In this document: piece by piece, positions 52,001 to 55,000 of the stretch | Layout: each line of letters opens with the position of its first letter | Numbering within the stretch: the stretch's first letter is position 1 | Assembly (NCBI RefSeq): GCF_045037415.1 | Contig: NZ_CP173438.1 | From: Escherichia coli | GTDB lineage: Bacteria; Pseudomonadota; Gammaproteobacteria; Enterobacterales; Enterobacteriaceae | Strand: one strand, 5' to 3' | DNA: 64,000 bases | Made by a program: the position numbers

Positions 52001-55000
52001 AGTTTTTTCTTCAGCTCGCGCAGGCTAACGGTTACGGTTTTACCGTTAACGGTGTGGGTGCCTTCGCCCAGCAGATGCCAGTAGCTGGTCATTTCGATCA
52101 GTTCATCGTAATAGCTGGAGATCCCCTCCGCACGTTTCTGGATCTGCTCGTTGGTAACGATATCGTCAAAGACAACAGACGGATCGTTAACGATATTACG
52201 GATGATATGGGTATAGGAGCGGGAATGAATCGTTTCTGAGAACGCCCAGGTTTCTACCCAGGTTTCCAGTTCCGGGATCGAGATCAGCGGCAGCAGTGCC
52301 ACGTTCGGACTGCGACCCTGAATGGAATCCAGCAGCGTCTGATATTTCAGGTTGCTGATAAAGATGTGTTTTTCGTGTTCAGGCAGTGCCTGGTAATCGA
52401 TACGGTCGCGGGAGACGTCAACTTCTTCCGGACGCCAGAAGAAAGAGAGCTGCTTTTCGATCAGCTTTTCGAAGATGTCATATTTTTGCTGATCGTAGCG
52501 AGCCACGTTGACCGGCTGACCAAAGAACATTGGTTCTTTGAGCTGATCATTTTTCGTCTGTGAAAAGGTGGTATATGCCATGAATGTGTCCTGTGGTTTT
52601 ATTACCCCTCACCCGTCCCCTCTCCCGCAAGGGGAGAGGGGACGGTTTGGTGCAAAGACTGGGGGATTATCAGATCTTACATGCGCCGCTTTCGCAGCCA
52701 TCGTCCTGGATTGACGGCACCAGATCGTCCTGCGCGTCTTCTGCGCCGTCACGGGTGTTCTGATAATACAGCGTTTTGACCCCGAATTTGTAGGCAGTGA
52801 GCAGGTCTTTCAGCAACTGCTGCATCGGCACTTTTCCTGACGGGAAACGTGACGGATCGTAGTTGGTGTTAGCAGAGATCGACTGATCGATAAATTTCTG
52901 CATGATACCCACCAGTTGCAGGTAGCCATCGTTACCCGGCATTTCCCACAACAGCTCATAGGCGTCGTGCAGATGCTCGTAGTCCGGCACCACCTGGCGC
53001 AGAATACCGTCTTTCGACGCTTTGATGCTGACGTAACCGCGCGGCGGTTCAATACCGTTAGTGGCGTTAGAGATCTGCGAAGAAGTCTCGGACGGCATCA
53101 GGGCAGAAAGCGTGGAGTTACGCAGGCCGTGCGTTTTGATTGACTCACGCAGTGCTTCCCAGTCGTAATGCAGCGGCTCATTAGCGATGGCATCCAGATC
53201 TTTCTTATAGGTATCGATCGGCAGGATCCCTTTCGCGTATGTGGTTTCGTTAAACCACGGGCACGCGCCTTGCTCTTTCGCCAGCTCATTAGACGCTTTC
53301 AGCAGGTAATACTGAATGGCTTCGAAGGTTTTATGCGTCAGGTTGTTGGCGCTGCCGTCGGAGTAGCGTTTACCGTGCTTCGCCAGGTAGTAAGCGAAGT
53401 TGATCACACCAATACCCAGCGTACGACGACCCATCGCTCCACGTTTGGCGGCCGGGATCGGGTAATCCTGATAATCCAGCAGCGCGTCGAGTGCGCGTAC
53501 TGCCAGAATTGCCAGCTCTTCCAGTTCATCCAGGCTGTTAATTGCGCCCAGGTTGAAAGCAGACAGCGTACACAGTGCGATTTCACCGTTCTCGTCGTTG
53601 ACGTCGTTCAGCGGTTTGGTCGGCAGGGCGATTTCCAGGCACAGGTTAGACTGGCGCACTGGCGCGATGGCCGGATCAAACGGGCTATGGGTATTGCAGT
53701 GGTCAACGTTCTGAATATAGATACGACCGGTAGACGCACGTTCCTGCATCATCAGCGAGAACAGCTCAACGGCTTTCACACGCTGCTTGCGGATGCTGTC
53801 GTCTTTCTCATATTTGGTATACAGACGTTCAAACTCTTCCTGATCGGCGAAGAACGCGTCGTACAGCCCCGGTACGTCGGACGGGCTGAACAGAGTGATA
53901 TCTTCACCTTTCAGCAGACGGGTATACATCAGTTTGTTGATTTGAACCCCGTAGTCCATATGACGCACGCGGTTGCCTTCCACACCACGGTTGTTTTTCA
54001 ACACCAGCAGGCTTTCCACTTCCAGATGCCACATCGGGTAGAACAGCGTTGCCGCACCGCCGCGCACACCGCCCTGAGAGCAGGATTTCACCGCTGTCTG
54101 GAAATGTTTGTAGAACGGAATACAACCGGTATGGAACGCTTCGCCACCGCGAATCGGGCTACCCAGCGCACGAATACGCCCGGCGTTGATGCCGATCCCG
54201 GCACGCTGGGAAACGTATTTAACAATCGCGCTGGAGGTGGCGTTAATGGAATCCAGGCTGTCGCCGCACTCGATCAGCACGCATGAGCTGAACTGACGAG
54301 TCGGGGTACGCACGCCGGACATGATTGGCGTCGGCAGCGAAATTTTAAATGTGGAAACCGCGTCGTAAAAACGCTTCACGTATTGCAGGCGCGTTTCACG
54401 CGGGTAGTTCGAGAACAGGCACGCGGCAACCAGAATATAAAGGAACTGGGCGCTTTCGTAGATTTCGCCGGTCACGCGGTTCTGTACCAGATATTTGCCT
54501 TCCAGCTGCTTAACGGCAGCATAAGAGAAGGTCATATCACGGTCGTGATCGATAAACGTGTCCATCTGCTTGAACTCTTCTTCCGTGTAGTCTTCCAGCA
54601 GATGATTATCGTATTTGCCCATCTCGACCATTTTCACCACATGGTCGTACAGCGCAGGCGGCTCAAACTGACCGTAGGCTTTTTTACGCAGGTGGAAGAT
54701 CGCCAGACGTGCGGCGAGATACTGATAATCCGGCGCATCACGGGAGATCAGGTCTGCGGCAGCCTTGATAATGGTTTCGTGGATGTCAGAGGTCTTGATA
54801 CCGTCATAAAACTGAATGTGGGAGCGCAGCTCGACCTGGGAAATCGAAACGTTATGCAGTCCTTCTGCCGCCCAATCCAGAACGCGATGGATTTTGTCGA
54901 GATTGATGCGCTCTGTGCTACCGTCGCGCTTTGTCACCAGCAGATTCTGATTCATGTATGTCGTACCTGTTTTTCAATAGCTTCATGCAGACTACCTGTA

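Follow-up and report, generated by a model that had tools for sequence, protein, structure and literature searches.

The nrdA-nrdB spacer of Escherichia coli raises a simple question: does the strong hairpin that it encodes belong to the regulation of this operon, or is it a resident of other origin? We analyzed a window of 64,000 nt from the E. coli chromosome NZ_CP173438.1 (assembly GCF_045037415.1), in which nrdA and nrdB, named after identical E. coli DNA annotated in RefSeq, are separated by 88 nt (52582-52669). Inspection of the sequence had pointed to a perfect 14-bp stem in this spacer on the transcribed strand, and had proposed that it serves RNase processing or stabilizes the 3′ end of the nrdA segment, thereby setting the relative output of the two subunits. 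The stem is indeed present at 52613-52645, where the plus strand reads CCGTCCCCTCTCCC-GCAAG-GGGAGAGGGGACGG and the minus (mRNA) strand reads CCGTCCCCTCTCCC / CTTGC / GGGAGAGGGGACGG in DNA letters and CCGUCCCCUCUCCC-CUUGC-GGGAGAGGGGACGG as RNA. It is the longest perfect hairpin of the 64-kb window, the runner-up having a stem of 11 bp.

Folding calculations bear out the strength expected of this structure. For the RNA of the 88-nt spacer, the calculated folding energy is −39.0 kcal/mol (z = −3.5), a value reached by 0 of 200 shuffles, and the 14-bp stem is found in the MFE and centroid structures alike; the stem core by itself, as RNA, reaches −32.8 kcal/mol. The original prediction had also argued from the lack of a U-tract that the hairpin is not a simple intrinsic terminator, and this view holds: the GC-rich stem is present but is followed by GUGAGGGGUAAU, and a scan of 51000-55400 called no terminator on either strand of the spacer. 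An nrdB promoter inside the spacer was likewise rejected, the promoter scan of the same interval having given no call there. Searches of Rfam returned no family over the spacer, whether in the 6-kb neighbourhood with an E-value threshold or in the whole window at the gathering threshold, and the REP-related family naRNA4 had no match in the spacer. An RNA G-quadruplex involving the four G-tracts of GGGAGAGGGGACGGGUGAGGGG is unlikely because a C-rich complementary arm is available in cis and the hairpin amounts to about −33 kcal/mol.

The identity of the stem becomes apparent when it is read together with its flanks. The published BoxC/PIT/TMECO consensus, CCCTCNCCC-N3-6-GGGNGAGGG-N3-GGGNGAGGG, specifies 24 bases and is matched exactly, in the mRNA sense, at 52606-52640 of the minus strand; this is the sole match in the window, and 100 shuffles yielded none. 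The hairpin makes up only a portion of a longer repeat unit of three blocks, whose conserved 5′ flank extends to 52650 (Table 1). The unit is intergenic, as BoxC elements are, with the nrdA stop (52670) on one side and the nrdB start (52581) on the other. The identical 36-mer is catalogued twice in Table S8 of Holder et al. 2015 (PMC4666352), as TMECO #441 of SE15 (2294215-2294250) and as #558 of NA114, and the SE15 coordinate of #441 falls between nrdA and nrdB. For BoxC/TMECO, 23 copies have been published for MG1655 and 823 for a set of 56 strains (PMC4666352), a source in which Bachellier et al. and Hoyne & Maher are cited for earlier work on BoxC/PIT. Homologous copies are located at trmL-lldD, downstream of gabT and at yijF-gldA, and occur in other genera as well. 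The second loop of the window copy is neither the TTA of type A nor the CCG of type B but GAC, which leaves its membership intact because the consensus permits any N3 and a GAC copy is itself catalogued. A palindrome arisen by chance, outside any family, could invoke the fact that stems of at least 12 bp appeared in 6 of 100 first-order Markov randomisations of the window. However, the exact agreement with all 24 consensus bases, including a third block that lies outside the hairpin, and the copies of the element at other loci and in other genera rule this explanation out with near certainty. The nrdAB hairpin is the stem of an ordinary, already catalogued copy of a dispersed repeat, and the value of this assignment for annotation is that a "perfect hairpin" in an essential operon receives the label of a BoxC/TMECO copy, not that of a new riboregulator.

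Table 1. Features of the nrdA-nrdB spacer and its surroundings, in the direction of transcription (positions are those of the 64,000-nt window).
Feature	Position	Strand	Remarks
nrdA CDS	52670-54955	−	Stop TGA (52670-52672) lies 24 nt before the base of the hairpin
Allele-specific 63-nt spacer segment	52603-52665	−	In most E. coli genomes checked, REP/BIME units stand here instead, between the shared junctions TGATAWT and ATWAAAC
5′ flank CCAAACCGTC	52641-52650	−	Resembles GAAC(A/G)GTC, the flank conserved in other BoxC copies of type A
Reported hairpin, perfect 14-bp stem and 5-nt loop	52613-52645	−	From sequence and folding
BoxC/PIT/TMECO unit, 36 nt	52605-52640	−	CCCTCTCCC-CTTGC-GGGAGAGGG-GAC-GGGTGAGGG-G
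Block 1, pyrimidine arm CCCTCTCCC	52632-52640	−	
Block 2, purine arm GGGAGAGGG	52618-52626	−	Watson-Crick partner of block 1
Loop 2, GAC in place of the family-typical TTA	52615-52617	−	Lineage-specific 3-nt block
Block 3 GGGTGAGGG	52606-52614	−	Potential Hoogsteen third strand of a DNA triplex motif (PMC4666352)
Likely nrdB Shine-Dalgarno AGGA	52589-52592	−	Outside the stem
nrdB CDS	51451-52581	−	Start ATG (52579-52581) lies 31 nt beyond the hairpin

Directly 3′ of the BoxC element on the mRNA lies an AU-rich single-stranded stretch, UAAUAAAA (52597-52604).

BoxC is one of several occupants of this site. Of the 5426 complete genomes of E. coli, 1683 (~31%) have a BoxC element in the nrdAB spacer and the other ~69% do not. 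Exact TTA-type alleles, which have the family-typical second loop and a stem of only 9 bp, were found in 1072 genomes, and exact GAC-type alleles, identical to that of the window, in 546 (~10% of complete genomes). Among the genomes checked, spacers without BoxC contain REP/BIME units, from one to three or more of them; alignment of the 88-nt BoxC allele with REP/BIME alleles of 146, 189, 226 and 233 nt revealed the same junctions, and no motif corresponding to the REP consensus (GCCGGATGCGGCG...), which makes an imperfect palindrome, was found in the window spacer. The idea that the BoxC allele was recently acquired by horizontal transfer was rejected on the grounds that the flanking coding sequences are 96-99% identical to those of E. 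coli bearing REP alleles and ~89% identical to those of Pseudocitrobacter. Judging from the spacer alignment, the E. coli BoxC allele could have been derived by deletion from an inverted pair such as that of Pseudocitrobacter, with the caveat for common ancestry that the flank common to the two spacers is partly internal to the repeat. The nrdA-nrdB spacer is thus a site that tolerates and often exchanges palindromic repeats. Its natural alleles (BoxC with a 14-bp stem, BoxC with a 9-bp stem, one to three REPs) constitute a ready swap series at a single intercistronic site, which could be used to test the effect of palindromic repeats on the relative expression of neighbouring cistrons.

The GAC allele itself also calls for an explanation. 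Its three bases GAC are exactly complementary to the GTC at 52641-52643 of the 5′ flank, so that the stem measures 14 bp instead of 9 bp. Moving outward from the core, the first three positions are mismatched and the next two paired in the TTA allele, whereas all five are paired in the GAC allele, the three changed bases all being complementary to GTC. In the 5′ flank, CCGTC accounts for the outermost 5 bp of the stem, and the first two G of block 3 (52613-52614) are pulled into the extended hairpin. Among 13 BoxC copies compared, this 5-bp extension was seen in the window allele only. The calculated folding energy changes from −22.1 to −32.8 kcal/mol for the RNA core and from −15.2 to −21.9 kcal/mol when the spacer is folded as DNA. 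The two loops, GAC and TTA, are distinguished by the block as a whole, no intermediates were found among the variants inspected, and GAC is present on the other SNP background too. These observations describe an imperfect inverted repeat made perfect by a clustered change complementary to the opposite arm, as expected of a quasi-palindrome correction. We infer that the change went from TTA to GAC, TTA being the family norm and GAC occurring at the nrdAB locus only in the data examined, and that it most likely arose, to judge by the alleles, by one intrastrand template switch, as a quasi-palindrome correction. Ripley's model of quasi-palindrome template switching has reportedly been studied in E. 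coli lacZ reporters. The TTA-to-GAC substitution would provide a clean natural case of apparent quasi-palindrome correction, now common in one lineage.

Could the stem nonetheless have evolved in the service of nrdAB, as the original prediction would have it, that is, as an RNase processing site or a 3′-end stabiliser that sets the NrdA:NrdB ratio? Such a dedicated hairpin would account for a very stable stem located between two cistrons on the transcribed strand, the AU-rich stretch at 52597-52604 could be a target of RNase E, and some hairpin exists in this spacer in most Enterobacterales. However, the sequence is that of a repeat family dispersed at unrelated loci, BoxC is missing from the spacer of most E. 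coli genomes, its 14-bp form is confined to about a tenth of them, and the nrdAB spacers of Photorhabdus, Xenorhabdus and Providencia measure 12-23 nt and contain no hairpin. The search for compensatory changes that was to accompany the prediction also came out against it: there were none in the 9-bp core among the 13 BoxC copies, four of which have a mismatch, and variants break pairs (base pairs were tallied by direct parsing of the blocks, since the MAFFT alignment had put gaps wrongly in the left arm). The element does not behave as a conserved cis-regulatory RNA, with no compensatory changes, non-homologous spacers in other genera and no match in Rfam. In addition, a 14-bp stem is short for a substrate of RNase III. 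We consider a function dedicated to nrdAB very improbable. A broader proposal is that the spacer is selected for structure, any stem-loop being favoured, be it REP, BoxC or terminator-like, and that BoxC is the current occupant with a selected post-transcriptional function. It draws on the finding that 54 of 72 nrdAB spacers of Enterobacterales, unrelated in sequence, fold with an MFE z < −2, against a baseline of 4 of 12 other co-directional spacers of this window, a comparison in which the species are phylogenetically non-independent and the control set is small. The structured spacers include REP/BIME, also present in the nrdAB spacer of E. albertii, single or paired BoxC, and a hairpin followed by a T-run in Kosakonia, Cedecea and Buttiauxella; BoxC elements are found in the same spacer of Pseudocitrobacter and Phytobacter. 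Yet palindromic repeats pile up wherever they are tolerated, and several genera are devoid of any spacer hairpin. The recurrence of unrelated hairpins across genera hints at selection for structure without showing it, and we regard a selected function of this kind as a tentative possibility. That the spacer is under selection for structure and not for sequence, and that the TTA-to-GAC change was an adaptive strengthening of a barrier that tunes NrdA:NrdB output, appears unlikely.

The activity of the element could also reside in the DNA. If single-stranded DNA transiently adopted either a hairpin or an intrastrand purine-motif triplex in replication or transcription, this would stall polymerases and create a hot spot for rearrangements, the hairpin of the transcript being incidental. 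Intrastrand purine-motif triplexes have been shown in vitro for type A and type B oligonucleotides, the TMECO oligonucleotides forming stable triplexes, and variability among strains of E. coli is higher at TMECO loci than at intergenic control sites (PMC4666352). In line with these data, the nrdAB spacer is strongly polymorphic in E. coli, and the TTA-to-GAC block is the type of error expected of hairpin-templated synthesis. On the other hand, no signal of a triplex was obtained from duplex TMECO DNA, and DMS footprinting in vivo lent no support to a stable triplex (PMC4666352), and REP alleles of the nrdAB spacer differ in copy number without any BoxC, hence instability need not stem from this element. 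We find a DNA-level role improbable.

We consider it probable that the hairpin is the stem of a BoxC copy residing in an exchange-prone spacer, that its 14-bp form is a lineage derivative, and that its effect is at most generic and not specific to nrdAB. The G-rich strand being the mRNA sense strand, the transcript is predicted to form a stem-loop of about −33 kcal/mol, which would begin 24 nt after the nrdA stop and end 31 nt short of the nrdB AUG, with the ribosome-binding site left accessible. By analogy with REP, the most likely effect of this stem-loop would be that of a barrier to 3′→5′ exonucleases that guards the nrdA part of the transcript, and mild Rho-dependent attenuation ahead of nrdB would be possible. 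REP stem-loops located between cistrons are documented 3′-exonuclease barriers and partial Rho-dependent terminators (PMC6061677; bioRxiv 10.64898/2026.03.23.713779). Because of this precedent, and because most strains and most Enterobacterales have a stable hairpin at this position, a generic exonuclease-blocking role like that of REP is plausible. An effect of the BoxC copy on expression may also be nil, because PIT elements, in the earlier tests as summarised in PMC4666352, showed no promoter or terminator activity and left RNA polymerase unaffected. In the literature looked up, we found no transcript 3′- or 5′-end, stability or expression data for this spacer: the eLife 2021 Term-seq supplements have no nrdA or nrdB entry, and articles retrieved with nrdA, nrdB, REP and intergenic contained nothing relevant to the function of the E. 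coli spacer.

Among known systems, the window element is closest to the BoxC/PIT/TMECO repeats (Holder et al. 2015, NAR 43:10126, PMC4666352), with which it shares the exact three-block consensus, the intergenic position and a type-A-like 5′ flank; the nrdAB locus also displays the inter-strain variability reported for TMECO sites (PMC4666352). It differs from them by its GAC loop, where type A has TTA and type B has CCG, by a 14-bp stem that engages two G of block 3, and by its location within an operon, where it separates two cistrons that encode an essential enzyme. REP/BIME elements occupy the same slot in most E. coli and in E. albertii and are, like BoxC, GC-rich transcribed palindromes, but they are unrelated to it in sequence and have neither a third block nor triplex potential. 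Intrinsic terminators also produce a GC-rich stem-loop in the transcript, and a hairpin with a T-run does stand in this spacer in the three genera named above, whereas the window element has no U-tract and drew no call in the terminator scan. As for quasi-palindrome template-switch mutations, the likeness lies in the TTA allele, CC-GTC-stem / stem-TTA-GG, having been perfected from the opposite arm, with the difference that the event is here deduced from natural alleles.

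The nrdA-nrdB hairpin is real and lies well above chance expectation. It consists of a perfect 14-bp inverted repeat with a 5-nt loop (CCGTCCCCTCTCCC-GCAAG-GGGAGAGGGGACGG on the + strand) and no other perfect hairpin in the 64-kb window is as long. Folding of the operon-sense spacer RNA (minus strand) gave a minimum free energy (MFE) of −39.0 kcal/mol versus a shuffle mean of −26.8 (z = −3.5), which none of 200 shuffles equalled, and the MFE structure contains the 14-bp stem, as does the centroid structure. On the transcript, the stem-loop (about −33 kcal/mol) begins 24 nt past the nrdA stop, its 3′ end lies 31 nt ahead of the nrdB AUG, and an AGGA motif falls outside the stem. 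No T-run adjoins the hairpin on either strand. The hairpin is not an intrinsic terminator, because a consensus scan called no terminator in the spacer; it called no promoter there either. The original prediction had described the structure correctly (stem, spacer placement, lack of a T-run), and its 88-nt gap was confirmed.

Coordinates of features in the window and in compared sequences (L-numbers designate compared loci; TMECO numbers are entries of Table S8, PMC4666352)
Feature	Sequence	Coordinates	Strand	Details
nrdA	window	52670-54955	−	761-aa ORF; annotation of 100% identical E. coli chromosomes
nrdB	window	51451-52581	−	376-aa ORF; annotation of 100% identical E. coli chromosomes
nrdA-nrdB gap	window	52582-52669		88 nt, from ORF ends
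14-bp hairpin	window	52613-52645	+	
TMECO consensus match	window	52606-52640	−	exact
AGGA	window	52589-52592		
nuoG RNA motif RF01748	window	3756-3798	+	50.3 bits, gathering 33
REP-like palindrome	window	51152-51219	−	GCCAGATACGACGC...GTCTTATCTGGCCTAC; weak naRNA4 match, 27.2 bits, under gathering
11-bp hairpin	window	43473-43502	+	ATGCCCGGTAA-CAACATGC-TTACCGGGCAT; co-directional spacer, ORFs 42326-43321 and 43514-44779 (−)
BIME	window	59418-59499		inverted pair of REP consensus matches; convergent spacer (z = −3.8) past 1254-aa ORF (55631-59395)
TMECO #441	E. coli SE15	2294215-2294250		
TMECO #558	E. coli NA114			
BoxC pair	L008, K-12 trmL-lldD spacer	67-199		type A + type B, inverted
BoxC pair	L010, yijF-gldA spacer	150-264		type A + type B, inverted
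BoxC pair	L014, L016 (Pseudocitrobacter)	778-900		two inverted units per spacer
BoxC pair	L023 (Phytobacter massiliensis)	737-850		two inverted units per spacer
Hairpin + T-run	L021, L025, L031 (Kosakonia); L034, L035 (Cedecea and Enterobacter sp.); L040 (Buttiauxella); L037 (a MAG)	~845-900		nrdAB spacers of 51-59 nt
nrdB homologue	plasmid NZ_AP027545.1 (E. coli, 111.7 kb)	101682-101932		divergent; 74.7% identity over 248 nt

The hairpin is part of a longer unit, which reads CCCTCTCCC-CTTGC-GGGAGAGGG-GAC-GGGTGAGGG-G on the mRNA strand. The E. coli triplex-motif repeat (TMECO), earlier named BoxC and PIT, has the consensus CCCTCNCCC-N3-6-GGGNGAGGG-N3-GGGNGAGGG (Holder et al. 2015, PMC4666352), and this consensus matches the window only here and nowhere in 100 shuffles. 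The identical 36-mer is listed in Supplementary Table S8 of that study as TMECO #441 and #558; in SE15, nrdA ends at 2294185 and nrdB starts at 2294274, with #441 lying between them. The BoxC copy at nrdA-nrdB is therefore already in the published catalogue and is a known kind of element; the main text of the study mentions neither nrdA nor nrdB, and Rfam holds no family for BoxC. Other E. coli copies carry the same blocks and a similar 5′ flank, GAAC(A/G)GTC; they are situated at trmL-lldD, at yijF-gldA and downstream of gabT. The inverted pairing of types A and B at trmL-lldD and yijF-gldA agrees with the literature description; type A is flanked there by GAAC(A/G)GTC and type B by T-rich sequence.

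Elsewhere in the window, the RF01748 match, located between two long + strand ORFs, indicates that part of the nuo operon is also included. The degenerate REP-like palindrome lies directly past the yfaE stop, so that a REP stands at the operon end and BoxC in the internal spacer. The 11-bp hairpin is the second-longest perfect hairpin of the window.

A 651-nt query spanning the spacer matched 5425 of 5426 complete E. coli genomes, in many of them as two pieces, because the spacers hold either the BoxC segment or REP/BIME arrays, as alignment of representatives revealed. In these representatives both kinds of allele share the junctions TGATAWT and ATWAAAC...CAGGACAC, between which lies, depending on the strain, a 63-nt BoxC segment or REP/BIME arrays that give spacers of 146, 189, 226 or 233 nt. 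BoxC spacers occur in 1683 of the 5426 genomes (31%); by the three bases of loop 2, between blocks 2 and 3, 1072 are identical to a TTA form, type A of the family, and 546 to the GAC form of the window, the remaining 65 being minor variants. Holder et al. list the TTA form eight times and the GAC form three times among their 56 strains. Judging from sequence comparison, the spacer element has been replaced between very close relatives, since the coding DNA flanking the REP allele of strain Combat2C1 shares 99.4% identity with the window. One BoxC-type match fell on a plasmid-classed record, a replicon that may have been misassigned.

Besides the three adjacent bases of loop 2, two scattered SNPs distinguish the TTA and GAC alleles. 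Strain Rb-23 carries GAC with the other background at the SNP upstream of the element, loop 2 of strain STEC005 is TAA, an unrelated single change, and no one- or two-base intermediate toward GAC was present among the variants inspected. In 13 BoxC copies parsed for stem pairing, the family stem is 9 bp, and pairing continues outward in the window allele only: in the TTA allele, where the flank CC-GTC lies opposite TTA-GG, three mismatches precede two pairs, versus five consecutive pairs in the GAC allele. All three changed bases are Watson-Crick complements of the opposing flank bases. We infer that the change from TTA to GAC arose by an intrastrand template switch, because three clustered base changes that together make a quasi-palindrome perfect are the hallmark of that process. 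The change from TTA to GAC takes the core RNA from −22.1 to −32.8 kcal/mol and the DNA fold of the spacer from −15.2 to −21.9 kcal/mol.

Spacers at 80 nrdAB loci recovered from Enterobacterales genomes are not homologous and range from 12 to 322 nt. They contain REP/BIME-like palindromes (E. albertii, Citrobacter, Klebsiella and others), inverted BoxC pairs (Pseudocitrobacter, Phytobacter), degenerate BoxC-like units (one Cedecea and one Enterobacter species) or a hairpin with a T-run (Kosakonia, Cedecea, Buttiauxella), or are nearly absent at 12-23 nt (Photorhabdus, Xenorhabdus, Providencia). Among the 72 spacers of at least 30 nt, from species that are not independent, z fell below −2 in 54 and below −3 in 39, compared with z < −2 in 4 of 12 other co-directional spacers of the window, a small control set; the slot therefore seems either to favour a stable stem-loop or simply to tolerate one. 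The GC-rich hairpins followed by a T-run resemble intrinsic terminators inside the operon and imply that in those genera either termination is leaky or nrdB has a promoter of its own. The inverted BoxC pairs fold as one long hairpin (−61 to −79 kcal/mol). The right-hand BoxC of Pseudocitrobacter and its downstream flank can be aligned with the E. coli BoxC allele, which may have arisen from such a pair by deletion; recent transfer between the two is unlikely because their coding flanks share only about 89% identity.

The original prediction of a specific processing or stabilising element setting subunit stoichiometry finds no support in conservation or covariation: mismatches interrupt the stem in 4 of the 13 BoxC copies, none of which has a compensatory change. 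PIT elements showed neither promoter nor terminator activity, TMECO loci vary to an unusual degree among strains, and the TMECO purine triplex, although formed by single-stranded DNA oligonucleotides in vitro, was unsupported in duplex DNA or in vivo (PMC4666352). REP stem-loops block 3′ exonucleases and mark where the stable 3′ ends of Rho-terminated transcripts lie, and a REP within an operon can be stabiliser and partial terminator simultaneously (PMC6061677; bioRxiv 10.64898/2026.03.23.713779). Our literature look-up found no nrdAB transcript ends. The processing or stabilising reading holds only in a weak, generic form common to any transcribed palindromic repeat. Most likely, the BoxC stem would shield the nrdA segment from exonucleases in a generic way, as would the REPs whose place it takes, and its effect on nrdB, if any, would be modest; its presence at nrdAB probably reflects repeat turnover rather than a purpose-built regulator. 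The apparent quasi-palindrome correction, the allelic replacement of REP/BIME by BoxC at nrdAB and the recurrently structured nrdAB spacer are each a modest addition to the known picture.
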